A DNA stretch of 64,000 nt from Candidatus Aminicenantia bacterium (GCA_965225955.1 CBDDBX010000009.1:68880-132879); one strand, 5' to 3'; positions 21,649-44,913 are shown, numbered from the stretch's first letter. The notes: a model not told the origin generated them from the letters alone. Translations and numbers: made by a program.

Positions 21649-22110
21649 TTATAGGCTATTTTTGAAATCTACAAGAGCTTTATAGTGCTCTCTCTCTTCA
21701 TTAATGAGGCTCTTAATCTGAAGTTCCTGAGACTCTGAAATAAAAGGTGAAATTTCCTGATAGAAGAGTATTGTGTCAAGTTCTCTTCTCATAGCAAATT
21801 TTACTGCATCAACAAGAGTTTCCACTTTGTCAGCTTCTTCCTGCTGAGCCTGCTCGTTGAACAGGTTATCTGCAAAGCTTCTAAGATACTCATCGTAAAA
21901 TTCATAGTTTTCTATATCTGCAGTAAAGTCTCCTGCAGTTGTTTCCAGTCTTTCAAATAGTGCTGCATGGTTGACCTCTTCGTCAGCAAGGTGAGTGAAA
22001 AACTCTTTGTGTTTCGGATCATCTACTCTTTCAGCCCATTTACGGTAGAATACTTCTCCCATTTTCTCTATTCTTACAGCCTGTTTTATTACCTGTTTAA
22101 ATCCCAGCAT
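21649..22110 (-). CDS. Rubrerythrin/ferritin-like diiron-carboxylate protein (no rubredoxin domain), copy 2
   Basis: Two E...ExxH motifs (ADEEVNH, EEREH) in a 4-helix-bundle-sized 153-aa protein. Confidence 0.55.
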   Translation of the reverse strand: MLGFKQVIKQAVRIEKMGEVFYRKWAERVDDPKHKEFFTHLADEEVNHAALFERLETTAGDFTADIENYEFYDEYLRSFADNLFNEQAQQEEADKVETLVDAVKFAMRRELDTILFYQEISPFISESQELQIKSLINEEREHYKALVDFKNSL

Positions 22111-22120
22111 AGTTTACCTC

Positions 22121-22570
22121 CTAATTATCAATAAGTACTTCGTCTTCATAAAGTTTTTCGAAGTGTAGTTTATGTCTTGCCTCTTCCTCTGCAAGTCTGT
22201 AGAAGATTTTTCTGGTGTCTTCGCTTGTGGAGTTTTCAGCAAGGTATTTATAGAGATTAAGTGCTCTCTCTTCTCTTTTCATTGCGATGAGAACGATATC
22301 CTGAAAAGTCATCTCATCCTTCTGCTCAGGTTCTTCAAGGTAATCGGACATCTTCAGAGTATCAAGATTGATTGAAGGCCGTTTCTCTTCGAATGAATCC
22401 CTCATGGATTCAAGAAGTTTTGCATGACCTCTCTCCATGGCTTCATACTCTTTAAGCATCTCCAGCTGTCCCTTGAATGCTGCATGAAACTGAAGCTCTT
22501 TATAGAATTCAGCAGCTTCGTGCTCGCGATCTATGGCAAAAGAGATAATTTTATCAAGTTTCTCATCCAT
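22121..22570 (-). CDS. Rubrerythrin/ferritin-like diiron-carboxylate protein, copy 1
   Basis: AGGAG RBS before MDEKLDKII. ExxH motifs (MERGHAK, EEEARHK). The ORF-track start at 22654 is probably too early. Confidence 0.55.
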   Translation of the reverse strand: MDEKLDKIISFAIDREHEAAEFYKELQFHAAFKGQLEMLKEYEAMERGHAKLLESMRDSFEEKRPSINLDTLKMSDYLEEPEQKDEMTFQDIVLIAMKREERALNLYKYLAENSTSEDTRKIFYRLAEEEARHKLHFEKLYEDEVLIDN

Positions 22571-22589
22571 ATCTATTTCTCCTGATTGA

Positions 22590-22970
22590 TCAGCTCTTCC
22601 AGAAACCGTGCAGGTTACAGTATGCCCGGGCATAAATGTCAGCCCCCTCAACATTGAATACTGCTACAGGTTCTTCTCCCGGATTCAGATACTTCAGATG
22701 GCTTGTAGAACCTTCAACCAGTTCTATCCATTCAATATAGTGTCCGTCAGTCATTGGATGAAGTACTGATCCTACTTTTACTGTAACTCTGTTACCTTCT
22801 CTTTCAATTACAGGAACATGCTTTTCTGTTGCAGCATCTGTAGTATTTTCTGTTAATTTAACCATATCCTGTCCGCAACATACCATATGACCTTTTGCAT
22901 CATGCAGTACGCTTGCTATAACTCCACATCTTTCGCACTTGTAAACATCCATCTTCTTGTATTCCATCAT
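22590..22970 (-). CDS. dfx: Desulfoferrodoxin (2Fe superoxide reductase)
   Basis: N-terminal desulforedoxin CxxC...CC (CERCG...CCG). C-terminal SOR-centre His/Cys ligands. 126 aa. Confidence 0.8.
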   Translation of the reverse strand: MMEYKKMDVYKCERCGVIASVLHDAKGHMVCCGQDMVKLTENTTDAATEKHVPVIEREGNRVTVKVGSVLHPMTDGHYIEWIELVEGSTSHLKYLNPGEEPVAVFNVEGADIYARAYCNLHGFWKS

Positions 22971-22999
22971 TTCCTCCTTAATGAAAAAATCGTATTAAT

Positions 23000-23986
23000 C
23001 TATTTGACAATACCTCTGAAGGTTTTGAATAGATAGCGTGTATAATACAGAACAAGGGGAACACCAATAGCAGCAATTATCAGCATTACAGTCAGAGTCA
23101 GCTGGGATGATGAGGTGTTGTAAATAGTCATGTCCAGTTCAGTGCCGTTATTTGCTCTCACAAGCACTGGGAAGAGCATTGAGCCTACACAGCCCCATAG
23201 TCCTGTAATCATAATTGACGACATAATAAATGAGCTCTTTGCTTTTCCTGATGAGGTGCGGAACCATGCTGTCAGGGAAATCACTATTGAAACCCACAGA
23301 AGAGGTCTTGAATATATACCTTCCGGTAACTGCAGGAAACCTGTGATAAGCATCAGAGCGAAAACAGGTAGAAATACCATTCTGCTTAGTTTTTTTACCT
23401 TTTCAGCCCGTTCTTTTATCGGACCGTCGGTTTTAGTAGTTGTGTAGATACTGCCCTGCATGATAAAGGCAAGTAAACTTACCAGTCCCATCAGAAGAGG
23501 GAAGGGACGCAGGAGAGTAAAGAAGTTTCCGGTAAAGTTCATAGACTGATCAAGTGGAACTCCTACAATTATATTGCCAAGGGCGACACCAAAAAGCAGG
23601 GATGGCAAAAAACTGCCTATAGCAAAGCCTTTAAACCAGAACTCTTTCCCTTCTTCCAGATAGTGAATGAATTCTATGGAAACAGCTCTTATGATAAGGG
23701 CAAACAGTACCAGCATTATTGCCAGATAGAAACCACTGAAAACCGTTGCATAAACGTGAGGGAAAGATGCAAACAGGGCACCACCACCGGTTAAAAGCCA
23801 TACCTCATTTCCGTCCCAGTAAGGGCCAATTGCTTTCATAAGTTTCAGTTTTTCTTTTTCATTCTTTGCAACAAAGGGATAAATTGTACCAACTCCCAAA
23901 TCAAATCCTCCGAGAATAGAGTAGCCAAGAAGCAGTACCCCAACAAGAATAAACCATACAACTCTAAGTATATCTAATAGTTCCAT
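23000..23986 (-). CDS. cydB: Cytochrome bd ubiquinol oxidase subunit II
   Basis: 328-aa polytopic protein with a 'WDGNEVWLL' motif. Directly downstream of cydA. Confidence 0.85.
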   Translation of the reverse strand: MELLDILRVVWFILVGVLLLGYSILGGFDLGVGTIYPFVAKNEKEKLKLMKAIGPYWDGNEVWLLTGGGALFASFPHVYATVFSGFYLAIMLVLFALIIRAVSIEFIHYLEEGKEFWFKGFAIGSFLPSLLFGVALGNIIVGVPLDQSMNFTGNFFTLLRPFPLLMGLVSLLAFIMQGSIYTTTKTDGPIKERAEKVKKLSRMVFLPVFALMLITGFLQLPEGIYSRPLLWVSIVISLTAWFRTSSGKAKSSFIMSSIMITGLWGCVGSMLFPVLVRANNGTELDMTIYNTSSSQLTLTVMLIIAAIGVPLVLYYTRYLFKTFRGIVK

Positions 23987-24054
23987 TTTTTTCTCCTTAA
24001 TAGTTTCCGCTTGTCAGGGATTCCGGTCCTTTTTTAACTATCTGTTTGAAGATT

Positions 24055-25323
24055 TTAAGGAAAATCACAAAAATCAATGAGTATACAATTACAAAAAAGT
24101 ATCAGAGTAGCAAGAATCTGCCATGCCGGTACAGTAGGGGATACAGCTGCTGAAGTTTTCATGATATTGTAAACAACCCAGGGTTGCCTTCCTACCTCTG
24201 CAGCCATCCAGCCAATTTCATTGGCAATGTATGGAAGAGGTATAGCCCATAATAGTAGTTTCAGGAACCATGGAGTTTCAGCAAATTTATCTTTTCTCAT
24301 CATGTATAAAGCAAGAAGCCCTATACCCATCATTGCAACTCCTGCAAAGATCATTATGTGATAAGAAACAAAGGAGAGTACCACCGGGGGTCTCTCATCT
24401 TTTGGAAAATCCTTTAAGCCGATTACTTTACCATCGGGATCAAAATGGATCATGTAGCTGAGCATTTTGGGAAGGCTGAACCAGACTGCAGTCTCTTCTT
24501 TCTCTTCGTCAGGCATACCAAGTACAGTATAGTCAACTCCTGTACCAGTTTCCCATACTCCTTCAAAGGCAGCCATCTTTGCAGGCTGGGTCAGAGCAAC
24601 CTGAACTGCATGGAAATGACCTGCTCCCAGCTGGATAAAGCAGGATATTGCAAATACCGGAAGAGCTATCTTCATAAGAAGTTTTGCAGAGTCAAGGGCT
24701 CTTTTTTTAAGAATATACCAGCCACCTATTGCTGCAGCTACAAGTGAACCGGTTATCCAGCCACCTATTATTACATGTATATATCTTGGTATTGTAGAGT
24801 GATTAATGGCGGCTTCAAAAAAGTCAGTAAGAACAGCTCTGCCTTCTACAATTTTATAGCCTGCAGGTGTTTGCATAAATGAGTTGGCTATAATAATCCA
24901 CAAACCTGACAGATGTGAGCCGAAACATACCATTATTGCTGCTACCAGATAAGCTTTTTTTGATACTTTATCTCTTCCAAAAATCAGAACTCCCAGGAAG
25001 ATCGATTCCATAAAGAATGCGAAAAGTCCTTCAGCTGCAAGAGGGGCTCCAAAAATATCCCCAACCATTCTTGAGTATTCAGACCAGTTTGTTCCGAATG
25101 CAAACTCAAGAGTTATACCTGTAGCAACTCCAACTACAAAGACAAGACCCAGTAACTTTATCATTACTGTTGATATCTTTTTGTACTCTTCTTTGCCTGT
25201 TTTATAGAACATCGCCTCAAGAAGAACTATAACCAGAGTCAACCCAAGTGTTGTGGGTGGGAAAATGTAGTGAAAACCCGCTGCAAAAGCGAATTGTATC
25301 CTTGCAAGTAAAACTGCTTCCAT
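24055..25323 (-). CDS. cydA: Cytochrome bd ubiquinol oxidase subunit I (short Q-loop type)
   Basis: 422 aa with a 'GRQPWVVY' motif and N-terminal heme-ligand region. Confidence 0.85.
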   Translation of the reverse strand: MEAVLLARIQFAFAAGFHYIFPPTTLGLTLVIVLLEAMFYKTGKEEYKKISTVMIKLLGLVFVVGVATGITLEFAFGTNWSEYSRMVGDIFGAPLAAEGLFAFFMESIFLGVLIFGRDKVSKKAYLVAAIMVCFGSHLSGLWIIIANSFMQTPAGYKIVEGRAVLTDFFEAAINHSTIPRYIHVIIGGWITGSLVAAAIGGWYILKKRALDSAKLLMKIALPVFAISCFIQLGAGHFHAVQVALTQPAKMAAFEGVWETGTGVDYTVLGMPDEEKEETAVWFSLPKMLSYMIHFDPDGKVIGLKDFPKDERPPVVLSFVSYHIMIFAGVAMMGIGLLALYMMRKDKFAETPWFLKLLLWAIPLPYIANEIGWMAAEVGRQPWVVYNIMKTSAAVSPTVPAWQILATLILFCNCILIDFCDFP

Positions 25324-25338
25324 TAATGCCTCCTGACT

Positions 25339-25722
25339 TTATTTATTACATTTATTGCATAAGCCTTTGAATATCATTCTCATACCTGTAACTGTAAATT
25401 CCCCTGTATCCAATTTTAACATAATATCTTTTTTATCTTTTGCATTCAATCGGATATCTTCAATAGAGTGGCATTTTACACAGACAGCATGTGAGTGAGG
25501 GGTAGGGTCCCAGTCGTATCTGGCGGGTCCATTCATGAAAGTCAGTTTGGATATATCTCCACTTTCACATAGTTGTTCAAGGTTACGATAAACTGTTGCA
25601 ATACTTATTTTTGGAAAAAGATCTCTCATCTGCATGTATAGTTCATCGGCAGTAGGATGTAATCTGCTGCTTCTTATTAACTTAAGTATTTCGTTTCTTT
25701 GTTTTGAGTTTCTTCTTTTCAT
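25339..25722 (-). CDS. Fur-family metalloregulator (PerR-like by context)
   Basis: 127 aa. HTH 'ISIATVYRNLEQL'. C-terminal CxxC...CxxC (CVKC...CNKC). Sits 15 bp upstream of cydA. Confidence 0.75.
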   Translation of the reverse strand: MKRRNSKQRNEILKLIRSSRLHPTADELYMQMRDLFPKISIATVYRNLEQLCESGDISKLTFMNGPARYDWDPTPHSHAVCVKCHSIEDIRLNAKDKKDIMLKLDTGEFTVTGMRMIFKGLCNKCNK

Positions 25723-25932
25723 TTTTCAATAATAGTAATTATTATCAATTTAAATATAAATAGATTAGAAACGTTTGTCAATAGTAAAAAATTTATATAA
25801 ATACTTTTTCATATTTTTTCTGCTACATGCTGAATAAAACGTTTTTATGTATATTCTAAATAGAGTGAGAGTGGGATCTGTAAGGGTGTTATGTGAAGTG
25901 GAAAATTTTTTCTTAAAAAAAAATTTTTTTTC

Positions 25933-25961
25933 TTGACAACACAAATTAGTTGGATTATCAT
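25933..25961 (+). promoter_or_regulatory. Sigma70-type promoter TTGACA-N17-TATCAT for ahpC
   Basis: Consensus -35 with 17-bp spacing. Preceded by a long A/T tract (UP-like). Confidence 0.45.
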
Positions 25962-25964
25962 GCT

Positions 25965-25983
25965 AATGATAACGATTATCATT
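25965..25983. promoter_or_regulatory. Fur/PerR-type box AATGATAAcgaTTATCATT
   Basis: Palindrome closely matching the GATAATGATAATCATTATC class. Overlaps the ahpC promoter/TSS and is divergent from the fur-cydAB-dfx operon. Confidence 0.55.
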
Positions 25984-26004
25984 AACAAAAAAATGGAGGA
26001 AAAG

Positions 26005-26565
26005 ATGTTAAAGATTAATGAAAAAGTAGAAAGTTGTACAGTTAAAGCGTTTCATGATGGTGAATTAAAAGAGATTAATTTAAAAGAGTATGACGGTAAA
26101 TGGAAAATCTTCTTCTTCTATCCTGCAGATTTTACTTTTGTATGCCCAACAGAACTGGGTGAAATGGCAGATTATTATGAAGAGTTTAAGAAAGAGGGAG
26201 CGGAAGTTTTCAGTGTAAGTACTGATACTGAATTTGTTCATCTGGCATGGCATAATGATTCTCCTACAATTAAAAAGATAAAATACCCAATGCTTGCAGA
26301 TCCCGCAGGTAAACTTAGCCGTTACTTTGGTGTGCATATCGAAGATGCCGGTGTAGCACTCAGAGGAACATTTGTAGTTGATCCTGATGGTGTTCTGAAA
26401 ATAGCAGAAATTCATGACCTGGGTATTGGAAGAAGTGCAAAAGAGCTTTTAAGAAAAGTAAGAGCTGCTAAGTTTGTACGTGAAAACGGAGAAGTTTGTC
26501 CTGCAAGCTGGGAACCTGGTGCAGATACACTGAAGCCTGGTGCTGATCTCGTAGGTAAAATATAG
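26005..26565 (+). CDS. ahpC: Typical 2-Cys peroxiredoxin (AhpC/Tsa family)
   Basis: GGAGG RBS before MLKINEK. Peroxidatic 'FTFVCPTE' and resolving 'EVCPA' motifs. Confidence 0.85.
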   Translation: MLKINEKVESCTVKAFHDGELKEINLKEYDGKWKIFFFYPADFTFVCPTELGEMADYYEEFKKEGAEVFSVSTDTEFVHLAWHNDSPTIKKIKYPMLADPAGKLSRYFGVHIEDAGVALRGTFVVDPDGVLKIAEIHDLGIGRSAKELLRKVRAAKFVRENGEVCPASWEPGADTLKPGADLVGKI

Positions 26566-26579
26566 GATAACCTTAATTT

Positions 26580-26603
26580 GCCGGCAGATTTCTTCTGCCG
26601 GCA
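26580..26603 (+). terminator. Hairpin after ahpC (weak terminator or attenuator)
   Basis: gccggcag-atttctt-ctgccggc. There is no T-tract on the + strand. Confidence 0.3.
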
Positions 26604-26676
26604 TGTGTAGTAAAAAAACGTGTCCTGAAGTATAATTATAGACTTAAATAGTTCAAACGAAATAGGAGAAGATGAT

Positions 26677-27183
26677 ATGATATCAAAAAAGATCGAGCAG
26701 TTACTGAATGATCAGATGAATTTCGAGATTTTTTCAGCTTATGTATACAGAGCAATGGGAGCATATTGTGATGTAAGAGATCTCTCCGGTTTTTCCAACT
26801 GGTTCAAAGTGCAGGCTCAGGAAGAAGAGATGCATGCAGAAAAGATTTATAATTTTGTTCTGGACCGTGGTGGAGAACCTGTATATAAAGGTTTTGGTGA
26901 CCCCGGACATGACTGGGAATCGGTTATTAAAGTATTTGAAGAAGCTCTCGGGCATGAGCAGGTTGTTACCGAAAGGTTTAACAATCTTATGACTGAAGCA
27001 GTTAAAGAAAATGATCACGCAACAAGATCTTTTCTGAACTGGTTTATTGACGAGCAGGTTGAAGAAGAAGCTACTGCTCAGTCAGTGGTAAATCAGCTGA
27101 AAATTTTAGGCGATAGTGGACACGGTATTCTGATGATGGACAGAGAAATGGCTGCCAGAAAGTTCGTGCCTGCTGCTGAGTAA
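26677..27183 (+). CDS. Bacterial non-heme ferritin
   Basis: 168 aa. Ferroxidase-centre residues 'EEEMHAEK' and 'EQVEEE'. Confidence 0.75.
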   Translation: MISKKIEQLLNDQMNFEIFSAYVYRAMGAYCDVRDLSGFSNWFKVQAQEEEMHAEKIYNFVLDRGGEPVYKGFGDPGHDWESVIKVFEEALGHEQVVTERFNNLMTEAVKENDHATRSFLNWFIDEQVEEEATAQSVVNQLKILGDSGHGILMMDREMAARKFVPAAE

Positions 27184-27209
27184 ATATATAAAAAAATCTG
27201 GAGTTGTAA

Positions 27210-28409
27210 ATGGGTAAACTAGACGCTGTAAAGATATCCGAGTCAGTATACTGGGTCGGAGCAATAGACTGGAATGTAAGAAATTTTCATGGATACAGAA
27301 CAGGAAGAGGAACTACATATAATGCTTTTCTGATTCTGGCTGATAAAATAACACTGATTGACACTGTAAAAAGCGGCTTTTTCAGTGAAATGAAGGCAAG
27401 AATTGCTTCACTTATCGATCCTGAAAAAATAGATTATATAGTATCAAACCATGCTGAACCTGATCATTCAGGATCAATGGTTGAGGCAATAGAGTGTTTT
27501 AAGCCTGAAAAGGTTTATGCTTCAAAAATGGGAGTGAAAGCTCTTAATCAGCACTACAATTTCCCAATTGATCTTGTAGCAGTTGCTGATAATGAAGTAC
27601 TGGACCTTGGTAATATGAATCTGACTTGTATTGAAACAAGAATGCTTCACTGGCCGGATAGTATGTTTACCTATCTTAATGAAGAGAAAGTACTCTTTAC
27701 TCAGGATGCATTTGGTATGCATCTGGCTTCAAGTGAGAGATTCGGGGATGAACTGCCATGGACTACACTTGAAAGATGGGCGAAGAGTTACTATGCAAAT
27801 ATTATAACTCTCTATTCACCTCATGTGAGACGATTACTGGAAAAGGTTGAACAATCCGGACTGGATTTCAGTATTGTTGCGCCTGACCATGGGCCTGTAT
27901 GGAGAAATACCGGCAACTTCACCAAACTTCTCGGACTATATAAAAAATGGTCTGACAGGGTTATGGATAAAAAAGTTGTTGTACTTTATGACACAATGTG
28001 GAAGGCTACAGAGACTATGTCACGATACTTTGAAGATGGTCTGAGAAAGGGTGGTGTTCAGGTTGTGTCAATGTCAATGACTCACAGTGACAGAAGTGAA
28101 GTTGCAGACGAACTGCTTGAAGCTGCAGGTGTGGTTGTAGGTTCTCCTACACTCAATAACAACCTTCTGCCTTCAATAGCGGATATTCTTGTCTATATGA
28201 AAGGACTCAAGTTCGGAACTCCGTACTCAGCTGTTTTTGGTTCCTATGGATGGAGTGGTGAATCAATTAAACAGGTTAAAGAGAAGCTTGAGGAGATGGG
28301 GACTGAAGTTGTAGGCGAAGTAAAGTGCCAGTATACTCCTGATGAGGAGACCCTCAGAAAGTGCTACGATATAGGCCTTGAACTGGCTGAGAAAATTAAT
28401 AAAAACTAA
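27210..28409 (+). CDS. Flavodiiron protein (rubredoxin:oxygen/NO oxidoreductase, FprA/ROO type)
   Basis: Metallo-beta-lactamase-like diiron motif 'HAEPDHSG' plus a C-terminal flavodoxin domain. 399 aa. Confidence 0.8.
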
Positions 28410-28429
28410 CTAAATTTGGGAGGCTAATT

Positions 28430-28591
28430 ATGAAAAAGTATGTATGTGATGTTTGTGGATATGTTTATGATGCTGAAACAGGGGATCCTGAAAATGGTGT
28501 AGAAGCAGGAACTGCTTTTGAAAATATTCCGGAAGGATGGCTCTGTCCTCTTTGTGGTGTTGGTGTTGATCAGTTTTCCGAGGATGAATAA
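28430..28591 (+). CDS. Rubredoxin (53 aa)
   Basis: Absent from the ORF track (under 60 aa). [14 protein letters not shown]...GWLCPLCGV carries both CxxCG knuckles. RBS GGGAGG upstream. Confidence 0.85.
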
Positions 28592-28770
28592 TGGCTGATA
28601 CCGAAAAAGTACTTTCTGCTATGAAGGATGCCGGGAAACCTGTAAGACCTGGTGAAATAGCTGAAGCTACAGGTATTGATAAAAAAGATCTTACAAAAAT
28701 TTTCAAATCATTAAAGGAAGAAGGAAAAATTATCTCACCTAAGAGATGTTTTTACTCTCTTCCGGAATAG
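28591..28770 (+). CDS. Small (59 aa) winged-helix-like protein, hypothetical
   Basis: Absent from the ORF track. Its ATG overlaps the rubredoxin stop (TAATG). Translation [59 protein letters not shown]. Confidence 0.45.
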   Translation: MADTEKVLSAMKDAGKPVRPGEIAEATGIDKKDLTKIFKSLKEEGKIISPKRCFYSLPE

Positions 28771-28819: not shown

Positions 28820-29080
28820 TTAATCTACTTGCAGAGTGACTCTTTTAGCTTCACAGCCGCTGATGAGATTCAGTTTTCTGCAGAACTCATCAAGTTTTGC
28901 TTCCTCTCCCATCATTTCAAGGATTATAAGACCAGTCTGGGTACAGTTGTCCATAACTCCATCGTGGATACCAAGGCGGGTTTTAATCATACAGCCCCAG
29001 CCAGTAAGAATTTTCTGAACATTTACTGCACTCTCTTTTCTTTCGTCCATAAGAATGGCTACAATCTCTCTTCTTTTCAC
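28820..29080 (-). CDS. Small ACT/NikR-C-like regulatory protein (resembles TM1266-type 'iron-only hydrogenase system regulator')
   Basis: GTG start at 29080 with a GGAGGA RBS gives an 86-aa protein, MKRREIVAILMDERKESAVNVQKILTGWGCMIKTRLGIHDG.... The ORF-track start at 29176 is probably too early. Confidence 0.4.
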   Translation of the reverse strand: MKRREIVAILMDERKESAVNVQKILTGWGCMIKTRLGIHDGVMDNCTQTGLIILEMMGEEAKLDEFCRKLNLISGCEAKRVTLQVD

Positions 29081-29314
29081 TATGAATCCTCCATTAATTT
29101 TTGAAATAACTCCTTTTTTATAGTACAGATTCACTTTTTTTTCAAAGGCATTTGTTTGTGGATGAATCCGGTACACAGTCCGTTTATATTCAAAAAGTTG
29201 AATTTGTAGGGTATGAAGAGAAAAGGTAACTGTTTTGGTTAAAATTTGTGTACATAATTTTTCTTTCGTTTGACAAAATTATGACAAAACACGCATACTT
29301 ATAACAGGACAACC

Positions 29315-29866
29315 ATGAACTTGTTGAAAAAAATTTTCAGGAACAGGTATGTTACTTACGGGTTTATCTTTGGTGCGGTATTTGCTTTTGGAGTTGCTTA
29401 TGCAATAAGCTCTGCAGTAAAGCATACCGGTGATGATAAGTTCTGCGGAACCTGCCATATAATGGATTTTGCTATTAATGCATATCATCAGGACGTGCAT
29501 GGGGGAAACAATAAAAACGGATTCAAGGCAGAGTGTACTGACTGTCATCTTCCTCATGACACAATAGTCAATTTTATTCTTACAAAAGGGTATAAAGGGC
29601 TTCATGATCCTATCTCCCAGTTGATAAATGATGAAGAAAAACTGGATTGGGTAGGGATTCTGAAGGACCGGGAGAAGTTTACCTACTCTTCAGGTTGCCT
29701 GAAGTGCCACGATCTTGATGCAATAAAAATGGAAATTCCCAAAGCCTGGCAGGCTCACAGGGATTTTAAGCAGGGTAAGGTTAAAAGCTGTATTGAGTGC
29801 CATAAACATGTCGGTCATAAAGATATTCTGGTTCATATAAAAAAACGTTTTGGAGGTGACAGGTGA
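29315..29866 (+). CDS. NapC/NirT/NrfH-family membrane-anchored tetraheme cytochrome c (quinol dehydrogenase)
   Basis: N-terminal TM helix and 4 CxxCH motifs (CGTCH, CTDCH, CLKCH, CIECH). 183 aa. Confidence 0.8.
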   Translation: MNLLKKIFRNRYVTYGFIFGAVFAFGVAYAISSAVKHTGDDKFCGTCHIMDFAINAYHQDVHGGNNKNGFKAECTDCHLPHDTIVNFILTKGYKGLHDPISQLINDEEKLDWVGILKDREKFTYSSGCLKCHDLDAIKMEIPKAWQAHRDFKQGKVKSCIECHKHVGHKDILVHIKKRFGGDR

Positions 29867-31167
29867 GAAGACTGAAATTAATATTTATCACCGCTGCGGT
29901 GATATTCAGTTTCACAGCACTATGGGCTTCTGTTAAAGGAGTTAAAGAGCTGAAGGTTAACCGGGGGTTAACAAAAGAGGCGGCAAAATGTATAGAGTGC
30001 CACTCAACTAAACAGCCGGGAATAGTTGCTGACTGGAAACAGAGCAGACATGGTCATGTAGGAGTTTCCTGCATAGATTGTCATAAGGTGGAGAAGGGTT
30101 CAAAGATGGCATCCCAGTTTTGTGAGGGGGTCAAAGGAACAGATACTTATCTCTCCTCTCTTGTTACTCCTGAAACCTGTGCCAAGTGCCACGCTCTTGA
30201 AGTTAAGCAGTTTAAAGCCAGTGGCCATTACAGAGCCAGGAAACAGTATGTAAATAAGAAAAATCTTAACGATCTTATTGCAGTTCACGAAGGGCAGAAT
30301 ATGCCGGAATTTGCAACTGCAGCAGAAGAGACTGGTTGCATGCAGTGTCATGGTTCTATTATTAAACTTGACAAGAATAATCGCCCGATAAAATCCACCT
30401 GGCCTACAGCAGGTATTGGTACAATGTATCCAAATGGTGATATTGGTAATTGTACCGTATGTCATACAAGACATACTTTCAGTATAGAAGAAGCAAGAAA
30501 ACCTGATGCGTGCTCTTCATGCCATCTGGGACCTGATCATCCAAATATTGAGATATTTGAAAACAGTAAGCATGGTCATATTTATAAGACCCAGGGGCAT
30601 AAATGGAACTACAGTAGTGCACCGGATGCCTGGGAACCTGGAGATTACAGAGCTCCAACCTGTGCTGTTTGCCACATGAGTGGAATTGGTGATCTTAAAA
30701 CCACTCACAATATTTCTGAAAGATTAAAATGGAATCTCTGGGCTAAAGAATCAAAGATACGTAATTCCAAAGACCCAATGAGTCCTCTTACAGGCAATGG
30801 AATTGAAGGTAGAAAAAAGATGGAACGTGTGTGTAGTAATTGTCATTCAACTCAACACACTAAAGGATTCTTCTCAGCAGCAGATAAGCATATCCGTCTC
30901 TATAATGAGGGGTACTGGAAACCTGCCAAAAAGATGCATGATGAGCTTAAGGCAAAGAACCTCCTTAAGAAAAACCCATGGGAAGATGAGTTCCAGAAAA
31001 TCTTCTATCATCTGTGGCATCACCAGGGAAGAAGAATGCGTCAGGGAGCTGCAATGGGAGCGCCTGATTACGCTCACTGGCATGGAGTCTTTGAATGTCA
31101 GCAGGATATTGCTGAGTTGAGACTGATTCATGCAAAACGTTTAAAAACAGGTAAAATAGAGCATTAA
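29863..31167 (+). CDS. Periplasmic octaheme c-type cytochrome, HAO/Otr-like (reductive type; candidate nitrite/hydroxylamine/NO reductase)
   Basis: Signal peptide. 8 CxxCH motifs (CIECH, CIDCH, CAKCH, CMQCH, CTVCH, CSSCH, CAVCH, CSNCH). Overlapping start, consistent with translational coupling to the NrfH-like gene. Confidence 0.6.
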   Translation: MRRLKLIFITAAVIFSFTALWASVKGVKELKVNRGLTKEAAKCIECHSTKQPGIVADWKQSRHGHVGVSCIDCHKVEKGSKMASQFCEGVKGTDTYLSSLVTPETCAKCHALEVKQFKASGHYRARKQYVNKKNLNDLIAVHEGQNMPEFATAAEETGCMQCHGSIIKLDKNNRPIKSTWPTAGIGTMYPNGDIGNCTVCHTRHTFSIEEARKPDACSSCHLGPDHPNIEIFENSKHGHIYKTQGHKWNYSSAPDAWEPGDYRAPTCAVCHMSGIGDLKTTHNISERLKWNLWAKESKIRNSKDPMSPLTGNGIEGRKKMERVCSNCHSTQHTKGFFSAADKHIRLYNEGYWKPAKKMHDELKAKNLLKKNPWEDEFQKIFYHLWHHQGRRMRQGAAMGAPDYAHWHGVFECQQDIAELRLIHAKRLKTGKIEH

Positions 31168-31179
31168 CAGAATATAAAC

Positions 31180-31199
31180 AGGAGCCGGTAACGGCTCCT
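31180..31199 (+). terminator. Intrinsic terminator after the octaheme cytochrome gene
   Basis: aggagccg-gtaa-cggctcct hairpin. Confidence 0.45.
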
Positions 31200-31220
31200 G
31201 AATGTTTGGGTAAGGGGTGA

Positions 31221-31631
31221 TTCATAGTTGCTGACAAGGGAAAAACAGTTGTCTATGATGGATACTGCAATCTTTGTAGTGGCCTGATAAACATCATCTA
31301 TCAGAAAGCAGTAACAAAAGGTATTGTTTTCGTTCCTTCCGATTCAGAAGAGGGACTGGCTATATTGAGCCGACATAAAATAACTACTGTAAATATAGAA
31401 ATTATCTACATTTCTGACAATAAAGTTCTCAGCGGAGCTGAAGCTGCGCTGCGTATAGCTGAAGATACTGGTGGTATACTGAAATTTTTTGCTGTTTTCA
31501 GGATATTTCCTTTAAAACTCAGAGAGTATATATATCGCTTTATTGCAGAGAGAAGATACCGGATTGCCGGAAAAAGAGATTCCTGTTATATGGTAGTAGA
31601 TAAAAAAGAAAAGAGTAAAGACAAAACTTAA
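31221..31631 (+). CDS. DCC-family (DUF393) thiol-disulfide oxidoreductase; no canonical start codon is available
   Basis: The in-frame sequence after the TGA at 31218 reads FIVADKGKTVVYDGYCNLCSGLINIIYQK..., a conserved DCC N-terminus with a CxxC motif. The first ATG/GTG/TTG (31365) lies downstream of that motif. ATA at 31224 is the only start-like codon. Confidence 0.5.
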   Translation, partial: FIVADKGKTVVYDGYCNLCSGLINIIYQKAVTKGIVFVPSDSEEGLAILSRHKITTVNIEIIYISDNKVLSGAEAALRIAEDTGGILKFFAVFRIFPLKLREYIYRFIAERRYRIAGKRDSCYMVVDKKEKSKDKT

Positions 31632-33878: not shown

Positions 33879-34214
33879 ATGGTACAAGTACTTACACTTT
33901 CTGAATCGATAATACTACTGACTATTCATAAGTTACAGCAAGAGGCTTATGGAGTAAAAATCAGACGATCAATAGAAGAAAATACAGGAATAGAATACTC
34001 TTACGGAGCTCTCTACAGCTCTCTGGAGCAGCTTACCAGGAAAGGGTATGCTGATAAAAAGGACGGAGATCCTACACCTGAGCGCGGAGGTCGCAGGAAA
34101 TCCTTTTATACAGTTACTTCTGATGGCATAAAAGCTCTTGAAGCAGCCAGAGAGCTCAACAAAACAATCTGGAAAGATTTCTCATCTGTCAGAGCTGAAG
34201 GAGAGGAAGCATGA
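33879..34214 (+). CDS. PadR-family transcriptional regulator (module 2)
   Basis: 111 aa with a 'YGVKIRRSIEENTG...GALYSSLEQLTRKGY' motif. Confidence 0.8.
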   Translation: MVQVLTLSESIILLTIHKLQQEAYGVKIRRSIEENTGIEYSYGALYSSLEQLTRKGYADKKDGDPTPERGGRRKSFYTVTSDGIKALEAARELNKTIWKDFSSVRAEGEEA

Positions 34215-40040: not shown

Positions 40041-41846
40041 CTATTTTTTTCTATCTTCTCCGGGAATAGTAACAGATACAATAAAAAGCAGTTCAGCCGT
40101 TACATATACAAAGAGAGGAATTGCTACTCCTGAAGTGAATCCGTATGAGTGCAGTCCTACTCCAAGAAGATTCACTCCGAACCAGGCCAGTGCAACCATT
40201 ACAGCTCCTGCAACTGAGCCTGCAGCAAAGCCTTTTTCTTTTATCATACCAGCTTTTTTTGCATGGAAGAGAATGGCTGAGAAAATGAGAACTGCCAGAG
40301 CTCCGTTTTCTTTTGGATCCCACCCCCAGAAGCGTCCCCAGCTCTGATCAGCCCATACACCTCCCAGTACTGTACCAGTAAATGTAAATATAAGGCCAAA
40401 CACCTGGGTTGAAAAAACAGCTTTAAAAAGGTTGCTGTCTTTTATTCCTCTCAGATTCTTAACCAGCCAGACATGGGCTGTAAAACCAGATAATATGATG
40501 CCTGCATATCCCAGAATTATGGTTATTACATGAGCTGCCAGCCAGAAGTTTGAATCAAGAACTGCAACAAGAACCCCCATAGTATCTCCATCAAGAGAGT
40601 ATCGTCCGGCAATAAGCATCATTATAAGAGCCGTAACATTTCCCCCAATGAGAGAGGTGGTGTTGTTAAGTCTGAAATAGAGAAAGCCTCCCAGTACAAC
40701 TGTAATAAGGCCTGTGAATATAAAGGTCTCATACAGATTTGTTACCGGAGGTCGTCCTGTTATTGTATATCTGATTGCTACTCCCCACAAGTGGAGAAGA
40801 AAACCACCTGATGTAAGTATCATCCCAGCTGTAAAAAGAGGTTTTTTGTTTCTGAAAAGAGAAGAGAGAAGGAGCAGGAGGGCAGCTATCCCATAAAAAA
40901 ACTGAGCTTTGTAAAACGGATCAACAGAGTTATATAGAACTTCATTCCTTATTGTACTGCTGTCAGTTTGTATAATTGAATCTGTACTATCAATGAATTT
41001 AGTTACAATTCTGTTGAAATTATCTCCGTTACGGTATGCCAGAACAATCTGTTCCAGCTGCTTTATCAGTGGGGGAGCCCCGTTGCCGGTATTGTGCTCT
41101 GCAAGATAAGTCCATGGGGATTTCCAGTCTCCTGAAGCAGAAGGAATGAAGGGGGGAGTTGTAGCACCGTAAAACTCCGGGAAGCTTTTGAGTATTGCCA
41201 GAAGGCGTGATGCCTCTCTCAGTTCCCTGCTATCTTCTGGAGATTCATTGATAAAATTTTCAAGTATCTTCTGAGTCTTTCTGAATTGAAGATATGAGTG
41301 GACGCCGGATCTGGCTCCTGTAATTTTCTGTAATTCCGGTGACTCTATTTTCAGATGGGGAGATGGAATTGCAAACATCATGCAGTTTCTGAGATCTTTG
41401 TAGATAAGGAGCCTGTTGTAGAGAAGTATTATGTCTCTTTCAAGAAGTGAGCGGGATGCTTCACTTTTTGAAGAGATCTGCCTTACAAGCCTGTCTATAT
41501 TTCCTGCACCATGGATCAGCTGGTTATAACTGTATCTGTCCCTGCCTTTTCCGGTTCCTTTTATCCCTATTGCTCCGGGAATATCAGGATTTGAAATAAG
41601 AAAGACTCTGTGATGGGCAGCTTTTTCCGGTTTAAACATTGTTTCCGCCAGCCATCTGGCTGCACTCATCTTCTCATATTTACTCTTCCCGGATAGTTGT
41701 CTCAGAATGTTTATCGCATAAGTATCAAGAGGCAGAGGTCGGCCTTTAAGAATTACCGGTATCTTTCGGAACTCTTCTATATCTGGTGCTGCATCTACTG
41801 GTAGTGTGCAGATAAGTAATAGTATAACCGGTATAATTCTAATCAT
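40041..41846 (-). CDS. ccsA: System II cytochrome c biogenesis protein CcsA (ResC), with a roughly 300-aa N-terminal extracytoplasmic extension
   Basis: WWD heme-handling motif 'WGRFWGWDPKENGA', multiple TM helices, and a signal-like N-terminus. Overlaps the ccsB stop. Confidence 0.75.
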   Translation of the reverse strand: MIRIIPVILLLICTLPVDAAPDIEEFRKIPVILKGRPLPLDTYAINILRQLSGKSKYEKMSAARWLAETMFKPEKAAHHRVFLISNPDIPGAIGIKGTGKGRDRYSYNQLIHGAGNIDRLVRQISSKSEASRSLLERDIILLYNRLLIYKDLRNCMMFAIPSPHLKIESPELQKITGARSGVHSYLQFRKTQKILENFINESPEDSRELREASRLLAILKSFPEFYGATTPPFIPSASGDWKSPWTYLAEHNTGNGAPPLIKQLEQIVLAYRNGDNFNRIVTKFIDSTDSIIQTDSSTIRNEVLYNSVDPFYKAQFFYGIAALLLLLSSLFRNKKPLFTAGMILTSGGFLLHLWGVAIRYTITGRPPVTNLYETFIFTGLITVVLGGFLYFRLNNTTSLIGGNVTALIMMLIAGRYSLDGDTMGVLVAVLDSNFWLAAHVITIILGYAGIILSGFTAHVWLVKNLRGIKDSNLFKAVFSTQVFGLIFTFTGTVLGGVWADQSWGRFWGWDPKENGALAVLIFSAILFHAKKAGMIKEKGFAAGSVAGAVMVALAWFGVNLLGVGLHSYGFTSGVAIPLFVYVTAELLFIVSVTIPGEDRKK

Positions 41847-42921
41847 TTTTTCTCCTGCGAAGCAGAGACTTCAATATAAAGTGAAGTGCCATACCCACAA
41901 AAATTATTGCGCTTGATATATATGGAATAAGCCGTCCTCTGTTCTTTACAACAGCTATTATTGAGTACTCTTCTCCATCACGGTTTTTGAAAAAAGATGA
42001 TTGGTAAAGAGTGTAATCTTTGAAACGCAGAGGTTTGTTCATAGATATTTCTGCATCAAAGGTGTTGCCTTCAGGAGTGGAAACTTTAACTTTGCTTATG
42101 TAACTTCTGGGAATGTTTGAGTTGGGGTGAAACCCGGTAACGAAATCTTTCAGAAATACTTTAACCGGAAGAATTGCTACTTTTCTGCGGAGACTTAAAA
42201 AGCAGGTTCCGGTTCCGGTGTTAATAGTTGCCGGAGATCTGTCTTCTCCCCACAAAGTTATCAGGTGATCTTTTTTATCTGATGATTCTACAGATACGGT
42301 TGCTCCCGGAACTGCTGAAGAATGATCTTCAATAAGCTTTCTGTCTGTGCTCCCCATTTCTTTGATACTCACACTGTTTCTGATTAATTTACGTGGAACT
42401 ATTCTCATATTAAGGTCTTTTAGTTGCAGAGGTTTACCTTCTGAGAGAGCTCCGTAGTCTACTGCCCGAGTAGTTAAGCCATCTTTCTCTTCTGTCTGTA
42501 CTGCAAGTTCCCATTTATGGAGATGAAATACTTTTGAAGAGGCGGTTCCTTCTTTTATATTGAGTCTTGTATGTTCTGAATTAACAAAACTTATAAATGA
42601 ACCTGTAAGCAGTACGGCTATTCCTGCATGGGTAATCAGGTTGCCGGAATTTTTTATAGAAAAGTCCATTCTGAATATTACAGAAAGAATTAAATTTATA
42701 AAAAGTACCAGAGATATGGTGAGAACCCCGGGAAATGGCAGAAACCCGAAAATAGTAAAGAACCATGAGTGAAAAAACTTAGCCTGTGAAGCGTAGAGCC
42801 CGTTACCTGCCTGAAAAAGTGTTCCCCAGAATACAACAACAAGAAGAAATATAAGTCCCCAGGTAGTTAGTTTCAGTGAACCTCCTTTTTTAAGAAGTTC
42901 AACTATTTTTTCTCTATTCAT
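41839..42921 (-). CDS. ccsB: System II cytochrome c biogenesis protein CcsB (ResB-like)
   Basis: 360 aa. N-terminal TM helices, a periplasmic domain and a C-terminal TM helix. Immediately upstream of ccsA. Confidence 0.65.
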   Translation of the reverse strand: MNREKIVELLKKGGSLKLTTWGLIFLLVVVFWGTLFQAGNGLYASQAKFFHSWFFTIFGFLPFPGVLTISLVLFINLILSVIFRMDFSIKNSGNLITHAGIAVLLTGSFISFVNSEHTRLNIKEGTASSKVFHLHKWELAVQTEEKDGLTTRAVDYGALSEGKPLQLKDLNMRIVPRKLIRNSVSIKEMGSTDRKLIEDHSSAVPGATVSVESSDKKDHLITLWGEDRSPATINTGTGTCFLSLRRKVAILPVKVFLKDFVTGFHPNSNIPRSYISKVKVSTPEGNTFDAEISMNKPLRFKDYTLYQSSFFKNRDGEEYSIIAVVKNRGRLIPYISSAIIFVGMALHFILKSLLRRRKND

Positions 42922-43492
42922 TTGTAATTGACTGGCAGAAGGTTATAAGGTCTGTTCTCTCTTTTTTAAGAGATTCAGGCTTTCCTTTGAGTTTTATGAA
43001 CATTCTGCTGTCTCCTGTATTTACAATAGCAATCAGAAAAGAGGTCTCTTCCGGCGCAGATAGTGAGGAAAAATCGTATAGTTTGCCTTTTAATCTGCCA
43101 ATTGTGCTGAACTCTTCAGCACCTTTTATTATAGATTCTATATTCTCTTTTGTATCCTCTTTTTTTAACTGTCTGAGCCATCTGGAGATATTTGCGTTTA
43201 TAGTACCGGCTTCTCCGGGAATCATTATTATTGAACAGACAGACTGAAGAGGAGTATTGTATGTAGCCAGTCTTAAAGAAGATTTTGACTTTACCACAGA
43301 CCAGTTTCCGGGAACTCCCCACAACGGAATTGCCGGCTTTTCTGTCTCTTTTTCTGTCACCCTGGCTCTGGTATTTTCAGATGCAGGTTCTTTATACTTT
43401 CTTACTTCATCTTCTTTACCGCAACTACTCACAGTCAGCAGGGAAAAGAGAAGTACCGCAACAAAAATTAGTAAATTATTTTTTCTACCCAT
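42914..43492 (-). CDS. Lipoprotein, hypothetical (first gene of the ccs operon)
   Basis: Lipobox 'LTVSSC'. 192 aa. Overlaps the ccsB start. Confidence 0.5.
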   Translation of the reverse strand: MGRKNNLLIFVAVLLFSLLTVSSCGKEDEVRKYKEPASENTRARVTEKETEKPAIPLWGVPGNWSVVKSKSSLRLATYNTPLQSVCSIIMIPGEAGTINANISRWLRQLKKEDTKENIESIIKGAEEFSTIGRLKGKLYDFSSLSAPEETSFLIAIVNTGDSRMFIKLKGKPESLKKERTDLITFCQSITNE

Positions 43493-43594
43493 ACCTGAAT
43501 ATTAGCATTAATAGAAATTATTATCATTATTTTCCGGTTTTAAAAAAGGGAAAGCGTAATTACTCTCCCTTATAAATTTTTGCTGATCTTTTAT

Positions 43595-44577: not shown

Positions 44578-44913
44578 GTGAAAATACTCACAATAAATGA
44601 AGAGATTCTTCTTATGGGAATCTGGAAACTAGGGGAAAATGCTTACGGTGTAAAAATTATGGAGTTCTATTCAGATGCTACGGGCCGGGAAGTAAGTTTT
44701 GGCACCCTTTATAATAATCTTGATCAGCTTGTTAAGAAAGAGTATGTTGTTTCGGTTAAAGGTGAACCAACTGCTGTAAGAGGTGGAAAGAGGAAAGTCT
44801 ATTATACAATCACTGAAATAGGCCGGGAGGCTCTGGGAAGAGCCAGAGAGCTTCATCGGAAAATCTGGGAAGGTGTAGCAGAAACAAACTTCATAGCTGG
44901 AGATTCTGAATGA
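44578..44913 (+). CDS. PadR-family transcriptional regulator (module 3)
   Basis: GTG start with an AGGAGG RBS. 'YGVKIMEF...GTLYNNLDQLVKKEY' motif. Confidence 0.8.
   Translation: MKILTINEEILLMGIWKLGENAYGVKIMEFYSDATGREVSFGTLYNNLDQLVKKEYVVSVKGEPTAVRGGKRKVYYTITEIGREALGRARELHRKIWEGVAETNFIAGDSE

Follow-up and report, generated by a model that had tools for sequence, protein, structure and literature searches.

The two neighbouring genes haoC and haoA probably form a translationally coupled operon for an epsilon-Hao-type complex, which would reduce nitrite, hydroxylamine and presumably also NO at the expense of menaquinol, and whose main role in this organism would be periplasmic detoxification. 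That haoCA belongs, as a regular member, to the established epsilon-Hao (HaoC/HaoA) family is supported by the sequence comparisons given below; for the substrates, the product, the quinol coupling and the physiological role we infer from the same sequences what is set out thereafter. The analysis covered a window of 64 kb (the whole stretch of DNA that was analysed), in which haoC and haoA are the sole open reading frames with multiple CxxCH motifs. A recount reproduced what the original prediction had given for the two reading frames (Table 1), namely their positions, 183 amino acids with four CxxCH motifs, 434 amino acids with eight, and the lack of a CxxCK motif in the octaheme protein.

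Table 1. Features of the haoCA locus and its surroundings, with positions counted in the window.
Feature	Position	Strand	Description
O2/ROS/NO defence island	21649..28770	.	Pfam and NCBIfam matches
Direct repeat TGACAAAA-N3-TGACAAAA	29271..29289	+	Exact; 26 nt upstream of the haoC ATG
haoC	29315..29866	+	183 aa; predicted NapC/NirT/NrfH-family membrane-anchored tetraheme quinol dehydrogenase
HaoC N-terminal transmembrane anchor (predicted)	29351..29413	+	Residues ~13-33, VTYGFIFGAVFAFGVAYAISS; read from the translation
haoA Shine-Dalgarno GGAGG	29852..29856	+	Within the haoC 3' end; sequence ttGGAGGtgacagGTGa; 6 nt upstream of the GTG
haoA	29863..31167	+	434 aa; HAO-family octaheme cytochrome c, epsilon-Hao type, predicted periplasmic
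HaoA Sec signal peptide (predicted)	29863..29928	+	Residues 1-22, MRRLKLIFITAAVIFSFTALWA then SVKG; read by eye
HaoA heme-4 motif C159-M-Q-C-H163	30337..30351	+	Predicted catalytic five-coordinate heme; invariant in alignment A1
HaoA D225-H226	30535..30540	+	Distal-pocket Asp-His pair after the heme-6 motif; invariant in 40 homologues
HaoA P401-D-Y-A-H-W-H-G408 motif	31063..31086	+	Equivalent of the HAO cross-linking Tyr segment
GC-rich hairpin	31179..31200	+	9 bp stem with 7 GC pairs; 12 nt past the haoA stop
System II cytochrome c maturation operon	40041..43492	-	192-aa lipoprotein, ResB-like CcsB, CcsA

The gene pair and the predicted quinol dehydrogenase HaoC

The reading frames of haoC and haoA overlap by 4 nt, with the GTG start of haoA overlapping the stop of haoC (GTGA). 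This stop/start overlap, together with the 6-nt spacing of the Shine-Dalgarno sequence, indicates translational coupling of the two genes. The hairpin behind haoA likely marks the end of the operon; its T-tail was scored on the minus strand, and the downstream T-run on the plus strand is weak. The direct repeat upstream of haoC has a single exact occurrence in the window and overlaps a sigma-70-like match (29270-29299), and one may speculate that it is an operator or promoter element. The region ahead of haoC showed no PerR/Fur-like box that would point to a co-regulation with the stress island. The idea that the loci share a conserved operator in front of haoC was considered and rejected, as the only trace of it was a loose resemblance to a Delongbacteria locus, which MAFFT did not align.

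In translation HaoC contains exactly four CxxCH motifs (CGTCH, CTDCH, CLKCH and CIECH), a number that recurs in 64 of 66 HaoC homologues. The protein matches Pfam PF03264 (E=7e-29; 101 bits, cutoff 24.1) and remains below the NCBIfam equivalog cutoffs for NrfH (TIGR03153, 74 vs 134 bits) and NapC (TIGR02161, 59 vs 311 bits). By sequence, HaoC thus forms a branch of its own within the NapC/NirT/NrfH superfamily.

In the alignment the N-terminal hydrophobic helix of HaoC coincides with the helix region at the NrfH N terminus, and M50, K90 and D97 stand opposite Met49, Lys82 and Asp89 of Desulfovibrio vulgaris NrfH. From the NrfH structural literature we take the Met of the CxxCHxM motif, Lys82 and Asp89 to be residues of the quinol site. 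Of 66 HaoC sequences, at least 90% keep K90 and D97, and 56 have the CxxCHxM motif. Because the equivalents of the three NrfH residues are conserved, HaoC, held by one N-terminal helix, would oxidise menaquinol at heme 1, and the electrons would pass through its four hemes to the periplasmic HaoA.

Hemes, active site and family of HaoA

The eight CxxCH motifs of HaoA start at C43, C70, C106, C159, C197, C217, C267 and C324. All eight are invariant in an alignment of 40 homologues from several phyla (A1), and for this reason they can be regarded as conserved heme sites and not as chance occurrences, which is in line with the earlier reading of these motifs. HaoA matches Pfam PF13447 with E=7e-32 (cutoff 21.9 bits). 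Its heme-4 motif CMQCH stands opposite CTMCH of Nitrosomonas europaea HAO, where this motif binds the catalytic P460 heme, and opposite SCLACH of IhOCC. The aligned counterpart of the Asp-His pair is Asp267-His268 of N. europaea HAO (CHSGVDH vs CHLGPDH). As both the heme-4 motif and the Asp-His pair are invariant across phyla, a conserved HAO-type catalytic site is suggested, in which seven bis-His hemes would feed heme 4 (C159-H163), itself His-ligated and distally open. Heme 4 and the distal Asp225-His226 could then convert the N-oxide to ammonium, with no Tyr-heme cross-link of the P460 type.

An AF2 model of HaoA has a mean pLDDT of 75, with values below 50 at residues 200-275 (the heme core), and gives a TM of about 0.35 against solved structures. 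Long C-terminal helices, the elements through which enzymes of the HAO clade form their homotrimers, are modelled at 330-364, 376-398 and 401-429. Given the low confidence in the heme core, the active-site geometry described here is derived from the sequence alignment alone.

The cross-linking Tyr of oxidative HAOs, whose position the original prediction had asked to be checked, has no Tyr as its counterpart in HaoA. To place it we used as oxidative-HAO references two C-terminal fragments (P0338/P0339) that bear the motif NPGGWTYTEGWG. In the MAFFT alignment the cross-linking Tyr of this motif falls opposite H405, and by counting from the conserved Pro it falls opposite W406, which leaves an uncertainty of one residue in its placement. 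An hhalign comparison of A1 with the same fragments ended before the C-terminal segment. The nearly invariant Y403 lies 2-3 residues N-terminal of the aligned position, and the segment PDYAHWHGVFE is identical in the HaoA of the window and in the epsilon-Hao of Campylobacter fetus. Tyr334 of N. europaea HAO aligns with W293 of HaoA.

Across its full length HaoA shares 51% identity with the epsilon-Hao of C. fetus (P0178, E=4e-168); the identity between HaoC and the C. fetus HaoC is 42%. Identity of HaoA to a Halarcobacter homologue amounts to 59%, and the best match in a GTDB scan reaches 68%; the closest relatives are metagenome sequences and a Cloacimonadota MAG. Directly upstream of haoA, haoC was found in approximately 70 of 74 evaluable species loci from several phyla, as it is in C. 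fetus. The pairing with the HaoC/HaoA modules that had been foreseen is thus supported by these identities and by the adjacency of the genes.

Among solved structures, single-sequence searches gave IhOCC (4qo5, E=6e-43) and N. europaea HAO (approximately 1e-27), and a profile search gave IhOCC (4qo5, 2.5e-63), Kustc0458 (6h5l, 2e-39) and N. europaea HAO (1fgj, 4e-32). A Foldseek search with the model had these same three at the top. Strong PDB matches are limited to structures of the HAO clade. An NrfA type was rejected for HaoA, as the protein has no CxxCK, scores 17 bits with the NrfA-family model PF02335 (below its cutoff of 24.1), and matches NrfA no better than about 1e-4 in sequence and profile searches. 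An Otr or MccA type, a grouping that had been named as speaking against the original prediction, was rejected as well, since neither Otr (1SP3) nor MccA (4RKM) was matched by HaoA in the PDB sequence, profile or Foldseek searches.

A neighbour-joining tree (no bootstrap) was rooted on four more distant representatives, relative to which the protein of the window is nested within the family. It lies in a clade of Desulfobulbales, Cloacimonadota and Delongbacteria that is sister to the Campylobacterota sequences and not inside them. Hundreds of homologues outside the Campylobacterota typically measure 429-441 aa, and the Campylobacterota proteins reach 449-461 aa by a lineage-specific insertion of approximately 17 aa, to which C. 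fetus adds a further 12 aa. The idea of a distinct compact octaheme subfamily therefore finds no support: eight hemes are the rule of the family, and the length is the usual one outside the Campylobacterota.

A relative is present in at least 593 species-level genomes. Earlier publications already describe the epsilon-Hao family with its partner HaoC, as well as how widely the family is spread across anoxic habitats. Public records mislabel close homologues as "beta-ketoacyl-ACP synthase", "cytochrome c3 family" or "hydroxylamine dehydrogenase", and their annotation should read HaoA (reductive epsilon-Hao-type octaheme nitrite/hydroxylamine reductase) together with a HaoC quinol dehydrogenase. 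Conclusions on the nitrogen cycle drawn from metagenomes depend on such labels: a gene called hao is readily taken for a nitrification marker, yet anoxic habitats very commonly harbour the epsilon-Hao-type family (PMC8940962).

Genomic context and proposed role

Pfam and NCBIfam matches agree with the oxidative-stress island that had been described around haoCA. The island comprises two rubrerythrins, a desulfoferrodoxin, cydBA, a PerR-like Fur-family regulator, AhpC and a ferritin, and also a flavodiiron protein, a rubredoxin and a small wHTH protein. Its place among genes for defence against oxygen and nitric oxide is the one point that sets this otherwise regular two-gene unit apart. The presence of CydAB implies that the organism has a quinol pool. 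The predicted System II maturation operon is likewise present, approximately 9 kb away and of the CcsA/ResB type: CcsA (40041-41846) matches PF01578 and TIGR03144 and has the WWD motif WGRFWGWDPKE, and the ResB-like CcsB (41839-42921) matches PF05140. The 64-kb window offers no support for the earlier statement that this operon is dedicated to haoCA.

We infer a functional link between haoCA and the defence island from their proximity. As defence genes adjoin haoCA and no nap, nar or nrf gene was found in the window, the main role would be the detoxification of nitrite, NO and hydroxylamine; the setting in the stress island is a hint towards detoxification over respiration. This would, in our judgement, parallel NrfHA of Desulfovibrio, and for D. 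vulgaris NrfA a function in detoxification rather than in respiration is described (PMC12285233). The epsilon-Hao of C. fetus and of other Campylobacterota is reported to reduce nitrite and hydroxylamine with negligible oxidation of hydroxylamine (PMC8042395 citing Haase 2017; PMC10949509).

The same enzyme with the same chemistry might instead be respiratory, with HaoCA as the terminal nitrite reductase of DNRA in place of NrfHA, a function that has been put forward for Campylobacterota, Caldithrix and cable bacteria. The literature gives epsilon-Hao homologues such a role, often beside nap (PMC5317091; preprint 10.1101/2020.02.22.960823; PMC3701875), and in Campylobacter and some proteobacterial loci haoCA comes with FNR/Crp-like regulators or boxes. 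Stress genes as neighbours are moreover the exception, with approximately 4-6 of 55 long loci, and in the closest named relatives (Cloacimonadota, Delongbacteria) haoCA stands in unrelated housekeeping contexts. Against this, the immediate neighbours here are O2/NO defence genes, and in the 64-kb window there is neither nap nor nar nor nrf nor a nitrate/nitrite transporter gene, although nap, nar or nrfA may be encoded elsewhere in the genome. Also, the step from quinol to nitrite of the NrfH type is held to be non-electrogenic (Simon and Klotz, cited in PMC5317091). We consider a respiratory role rather unlikely for this organism, while giving it some weight.

The remaining alternatives concern the chemistry of HaoA. 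It is improbable that HaoA forms or releases NO from nitrite like the non-cross-linked anammox HAOr Kustc0458 and does not form ammonium. Kustc0458 is the second-best solved relative in the profile search, and it also has no Tyr cross-link and converts nitrite to NO (PMC8042395). Its identity to HaoA is, however, 20% in the Foldseek alignment vs 51% for the C. fetus epsilon-Hao; its partner is the diheme Kustc0457 and not an NrfH-type quinol dehydrogenase; and the release of NO into the periplasm beside genes for NO defence would be counter-productive. Ammonium, moreover, is said to be the product measured for epsilon-Hao enzymes in the 2017 work of Haase, which likewise argues against NO as the end product. 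Still less probable is a reductase of sulfur oxyanions (tetrathionate or sulfite, Otr- or MccA-like) or a non-catalytic periplasmic electron-transfer cytochrome. Many octaheme cytochromes are promiscuous in vitro and the active site is not visible in the AF2 model, but the Otr and MccA structures go unmatched in sequence and fold, and the invariance of the heme-4 motif and of the distal Asp-His pair across phyla speaks for catalysis of the HAO type. An oxidative hydroxylamine or hydrazine oxidoreductase (P460) that passes its electrons via HaoC into the quinone pool appears extremely improbable. HaoA belongs to the HAO family, and its near-invariant Y403 is just 2-3 residues off the cross-link position. 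The position itself is nevertheless taken by H405 or W406, and PDYAHWHGVFE is shared with the C. fetus enzyme, which is reported to be without the critical Tyr and to oxidise NH2OH negligibly (PMC8042395 citing Haase 2017). Furthermore, the window contains no amo, haoB or c554 gene, and its gene content is of an anaerobe type (desulfoferrodoxin, rubrerythrin, flavodiiron protein).

A further hint towards the detoxifying reading comes from other loci. In a Desulfobacterales MAG (L077) haoCA occurs with rubrerythrin, Dfx, Hcp, rubredoxin, FDP, Rrf2 and CydA, and Hcp, FDP or CydAB are found near haoCA in three more loci (L006, L007 and L057). From this recurrent but minority linkage to O2/NO stress genes one can draw a hint, open to testing, that some members of the family detoxify and do not conserve energy. 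Peroxide scavenging has been reported for NrfA. As a tentative proposal, which we regard as possible and on balance doubtful, HaoCA of strict anaerobes in at least two phyla may be the quinol-fed periplasmic arm of an integrated O2/ROS/NO defence island instead of a respiratory system, and may scavenge nitrite, NO, hydroxylamine and possibly peroxide. If this holds, the flavodiiron protein with rubredoxin, Hcp, rubrerythrin and desulfoferrodoxin would be the intracellular arm, and the window and the Desulfobacterales locus would represent two independent assemblies of one defence logic.

Comparison with known systems

The epsilon-Hao enzymes of C. fetus, C. curvus, Nautilia profundicola and Caminibacter mediatlanticus are reportedly the subject of Haase et al. 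in 2017 (Mol Microbiol 105:127). With the Campylobacterota enzymes HaoA shares eight CxxCH motifs, the Asp-His pair, the absence of the cross-link Tyr, the signal peptide and a haoC of the NapC/NrfH type upstream. It differs from them in lacking two insertions, their own of approximately 17 aa that follows residue 301 and the one of 12 aa in C. fetus (434 vs 449-461 aa), and in its neighbours, which are oxidative-stress genes and not a Crp/Fnr regulator or nap genes.

Of the solved structures, IhOCC of Ignicoccus hospitalis (4QO5), which has been called an octaheme nitrite reductase (PMC9250108), is the best match. Like HaoA it belongs to the non-cross-linked HAO clade, and it is aligned from heme 1 to the C-terminal helices at approximately 22% identity (Foldseek alignment). 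In contrast to HaoA, IhOCC is archaeal, has 521 aa with a large insertion between hemes 7 and 8, and carries a Trp where the family of the window protein has Y403. The order of the heme motifs and the Asp-His pair are shared with N. europaea HAO (1FGJ/4FAS) and with anammox HOX/HDH, and the C-terminal half is clearly homologous. Unlike N. europaea HAO, the HaoA of the window is shorter and has neither the cross-linking Tyr nor a C-terminal membrane anchor, and its partner is a quinol dehydrogenase, whereas that of N. europaea HAO is cytochrome c554.

The octaheme cytochromes pMHC and BOGUAY_0691 of cable bacteria and orange Beggiatoa are described as a sister clade of epsilon-Hao with activity from nitrite to ammonium (preprint 10.1101/2020.02.22.960823). 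The closest named relatives of the window HaoA are Desulfobulbales. The cable-bacterial pMHC is reported to have no NrfH-like partner, whereas in the window and in the examined Desulfobulbaceae/Desulfocapsaceae loci haoC is located directly upstream.

HaoC resembles NrfH of D. vulgaris (2J7A) and Wolinella succinogenes in its four hemes, single transmembrane helix, CxxCHxM motif and the Lys and Asp residues. HaoA is set apart from the pentaheme NrfA, which has CxxCK with Lys ligation, by its eight hemes and by an active-site heme with a His-ligated CxxCH. In its logic haoCA would nevertheless be like NrfHA, that is, a quinol-fed periplasmic multiheme ammonifier of nitrite.

Organization of the haoCA locus

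The gene pair was described accurately by the original prediction, as the ORF listing and a motif scan agree on both frames, on the heme counts and on the lack of CxxCK. The small protein (HaoC), with a hydrophobic helix near its N-terminus, contains four CxxCH motifs; the large protein (HaoA) contains eight and a predicted Sec-type signal peptide (judged by eye), and a search of HaoA for CxxCK gave no match. Further ORFs with more than one CxxCH do not occur in the 64-kb window. The GTG start of haoA overlaps with the TGA stop of haoC (GTGA), and a GGAGG Shine-Dalgarno sequence is located six bases 5' of this GTG. Overlap and spacing indicate that both genes are translationally coupled. The non-coding gap 5' of haoC comprises at least 138 nt and includes the TGACAAAA repeat, which overlaps a sigma-70-like promoter match. 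A loosely similar element, for which no automatic alignment to the repeat was obtained, lies upstream of a Delongbacteria haoC (locus L085).

Coordinates of features in the window and, in the last line, of the related locus L077
Feature	Position	Strand	Remarks
haoC	29315-29866	+	ATG start, 183 aa (ORF listing)
haoA	29863-31167	+	GTG start, 434 aa (ORF listing)
Exact direct repeat TGACAAAA-N3-TGACAAAA	29271-29289	+	26 nt 5' of haoC start codon
GC-rich hairpin	31179-31200		3' of haoA stop codon
CPF_0552-family gene	28820-29176	-	divergent from haoC
DCC1-like gene	31221-31631	+	3' of haoA; called start TTG at 31365
Palindrome ATAATAGTAATTATTAT	25729-25745		Fur/PerR-box-like; divergent perR/ahpC promoter region
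Two-mismatch copy of ATAATAGTAATTATTAT	43508-43524		just 5' of ccs operon
ccs operon	40041-43492	-	CcsA with WWD motif, ResB-like protein, lipoprotein; opposite to haoCA
Lipoprotein gene	42914-43492	-	first ccs-operon gene, 192 aa
Peptidase M3 (oligopeptidase) gene	50319-52518	-	appears split in two ORFs
PadR-family regulator, then MacB-PCD/FtsX permease (~850 aa)	13607-16523, 33879-36769, 44578-47483	+	three paralogous pairs
L077 haoCA/stress cluster	4142-16062	+	Desulfobacterales MAG, co-directional genes

The gene divergent from haoC encodes a small TM1266/ACT-like protein of uncharacterised function; as the family match is limited to residues 37-115, translation probably begins further 3' than the called GTG. 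In the gene of the DCC1-like thiol-disulfide oxidoreductase the open frame reaches back to 31221, and VYDGYCNLCS, the N-terminal CxxC of the family, is encoded by codons 31251-31280. No ATG, GTG or TTG was found 5' of these codons in this frame, which suggests that the start is non-canonical, that a sequencing error is present or that the gene is decaying.

The predicted System II cytochrome c maturation operon was confirmed. Its predicted lipoprotein (signal sequence ending ...LLTVSSC), an uncharacterised CcsBA companion, gave no Pfam or NCBIfam match. Elsewhere in the window, the two peptidase M3 ORFs cover profile positions 1-100 (51358-52518) and 149-456 (50319-51230), likely due to a frameshift, a pseudogene or an assembly error.

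Family assignment of HaoA and HaoC

HaoA matches Pfam PF13447 (Multi-haem_cyto) with 7e-32; the NrfA model PF02335 remained under threshold, and the closest NCBIfam model, hydrazine dehydrogenase, scored far under its cutoff. A single-sequence search of solved structures returned the Ignicoccus octaheme cytochrome IhOCC (4qo5, 6e-43) as best match, followed by N. europaea HAO (NeHAO, ~1e-27), Kuenenia HAO-like proteins and HDH. With a 40-sequence profile we obtained IhOCC (2.5e-63), Kustc0458 (2e-39) and NeHAO (4e-32), NrfA with only ~1e-4, and neither Otr nor MccA among the solved structures. Foldseek with an AF2 model (mean pLDDT 75; the heme core is poorly modelled, which is to be expected when a multiheme protein is predicted in its apo form) again ranked IhOCC, Kustc0458 and NeHAO on top, at low TM-scores. 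Taken together, Pfam, structure searches and Foldseek assign HaoA to the HAO/HDH/IhOCC clade that Soares et al. (PMC9250108) delineated.

The proposal of a distinct compact octaheme subfamily was not upheld. The best 120 of 2758 HaoA homologues in a large protein database (59-74% identity; Cloacimonadota, Delongbacteria, Desulfobulbales, Kiritimatiellota, Chloroflexota, Gammaproteobacteria and Halarcobacter) are 408-480 aa long. In the 40-sequence alignment Campylobacterota carry a 14+3-residue insertion after position 301, and C. fetus 12 more residues. As these insertions explain the length gap, 434 aa is ordinary outside Campylobacterota. A neighbour-joining tree without bootstrap contains three clades (Campylobacterota; Gammaproteobacteria/Chloroflexota; Desulfobulbales/Cloacimonadota/Delongbacteria), and the window HaoA falls into the last of these, beside two metagenome sequences. 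Public records often label the octaheme family "beta-ketoacyl-ACP synthase" (proteins P0004, P0035, P0050, P0079, P0090, P0110, P0161 and P0178), evidently a propagated mis-annotation; JGI names vary between "ribosomal protein S20" and "hydroxylamine dehydrogenase".

HaoC matches Pfam PF03264 (NapC/NirT) with 7e-29. As it scores well under both the NrfH and the NapC equivalog cutoffs of NCBIfam, it represents a separate branch of the NapC/NirT superfamily. HaoC shares 42% identity with the 185-aa NapC/NirT protein whose gene is located immediately 5' of C. fetus haoA. Of the solved structures, only D. vulgaris NrfH (2j7a_C) is related to HaoC; its Met49, Lys82 and Asp89, which the NrfHA structural work of Rodrigues and co-workers is reported to identify as heme-1 ligands and menaquinol-site residues, align with M50 (in CGTCHIM), K90 and D97. 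Among 66 distinct HaoC sequences from related loci, 64 contain four CxxCH and 56 the CxxCHxM motif, and K90 and D97 are conserved in at least 90%.

Active-site residues and proposed reaction

The C. fetus epsilon-Hao (P0178), recovered by a second search seeded with a Halarcobacter homologue, is 51% identical to HaoA over the full length (E=4e-168). Haase et al. (2017) reportedly purified four enzymes, this one included, and measured ammonium as product. According to PMC8042395, four purified epsilon-Hao reduce nitrite and hydroxylamine with negligible hydroxylamine oxidation; PMC10949509 also cites this work of Haase et al. (2017). In the 40-sequence alignment all eight CxxCH are invariant, and so is D225-H226, which aligns with the distal-pocket pair Asp267-His268 of NeHAO. 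The number of invariant His residues also suffices to ligate seven bis-His hemes on the distal side.

The C-terminal cross-linking Tyr, proposed as a check in the original prediction, appears to be missing. Two C-terminal fragments of oxidative HAO (P0338, P0339) carry NPGGWTYTEGWG; HaoA has APDYAHWHGVF at this place. The HAO Tyr aligns with H405 (MAFFT, 70 intermediate homologues) or falls on W406 if counted from the conserved Pro, so the alignment is uncertain by one residue, and neither position is a Tyr. The eleven-residue motif is identical in the C. fetus epsilon-Hao, which is described as lacking the critical Tyr and as essentially non-oxidative (PMC8042395). On both grounds the residue was scored absent. 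The nearly invariant Y403, 2-3 residues upstream, is replaced by Trp in IhOCC and by Val in Kustc0458.

The data speak best for a HaoCA complex on NrfHA-like logic. HaoC would oxidise menaquinol; in the periplasm, at a heme 4 that is not cross-linked, HaoA would reduce nitrite with six electrons, hydroxylamine with two and probably NO with five. The structural and evolutionary steps of this reading come from the data; the chemistry we infer from 51% identity to characterised enzymes.

Genomic context and physiological role

At least 593 loci encode a HaoA relative (each GTDB species scanned by one genome). In our synteny sample, the best 80 of these plus six others, a HaoC homologue is located directly 5' of haoA in ~70 of the 74 loci with sufficient upstream sequence. 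In Cloacimonadota and Delongbacteria MAGs haoCA stands alone among unrelated housekeeping genes, in Delongbacteria with the same 4-nt overlap. As the genes remain paired in such surroundings, HaoCA behaves as a self-contained two-gene module.

The predicted oxidative-stress island is indeed present upstream of haoCA: two rubrerythrins, desulfoferrodoxin, cydBA, AhpC, ferritin, rubredoxin, a Fur-family protein matching PerR models best and a flavodiiron protein with anaerobic NO reductase flavorubredoxin as best NCBIfam match (under cutoff). Also encoded upstream of haoCA are a 59-aa wHTH protein and the divergently transcribed CPF_0552/TM1266-like protein. A PerR-like box was sought upstream of haoC and not found. 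The ATAATAGTAATTATTAT-like copy near the ccs operon may be due to chance, as 7 of 100 shuffles gave an equal match count. No nap, nar, nrf or nitrate-transport genes were found within the 64-kb window.

The linkage to stress genes is not general. Using as queries the window stress proteins and Hcp (hybrid-cluster protein), rubrerythrin and Rrf2 of L077, we found such neighbours in only ~4-6 of 55 long loci. A striking case is L077, a second island in which haoCA is combined with nitrosative- and oxidative-stress genes. Its cluster comprises haoC, haoA, a PAS/sigma-54 activator, a wHTH59-like protein (a 64% identical segment inside 134 aa), rubrerythrin, desulfoferrodoxin, Hcp, rubredoxin, a flavodiiron protein, Rrf2 and CydA. 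The HaoA proteins of L077 and of the window share only 41% identity, so this island was assembled independently. Hcp also lies within ~6 kb of haoCA in two further loci (L006, L057).

With regard to the physiological role, we lean slightly towards detoxification, because the stress island, the L077 parallel and the precedent of D. vulgaris NrfA (PMC12285233) speak for it and against respiration. A respiratory role, which we favour less, would agree with most relatives having no stress-gene neighbours and with the DNRA function next to nap usually assigned to epsilon-Hao (PMC5317091; preprint 10.1101/2020.02.22.960823).

What the window adds is one more family member, from a lineage of ~39% GC, in a modestly interesting stress-island setting. 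The family, its reductive nature and the HaoC partner have been published already, reportedly by Haase in 2017. For the same points Simon and Klotz (2013) are cited in PMC5317091; the family was already reported outside Campylobacterota (PMC5317091) and is abundant in anoxic metagenomes along with hcp (PMC8940962).
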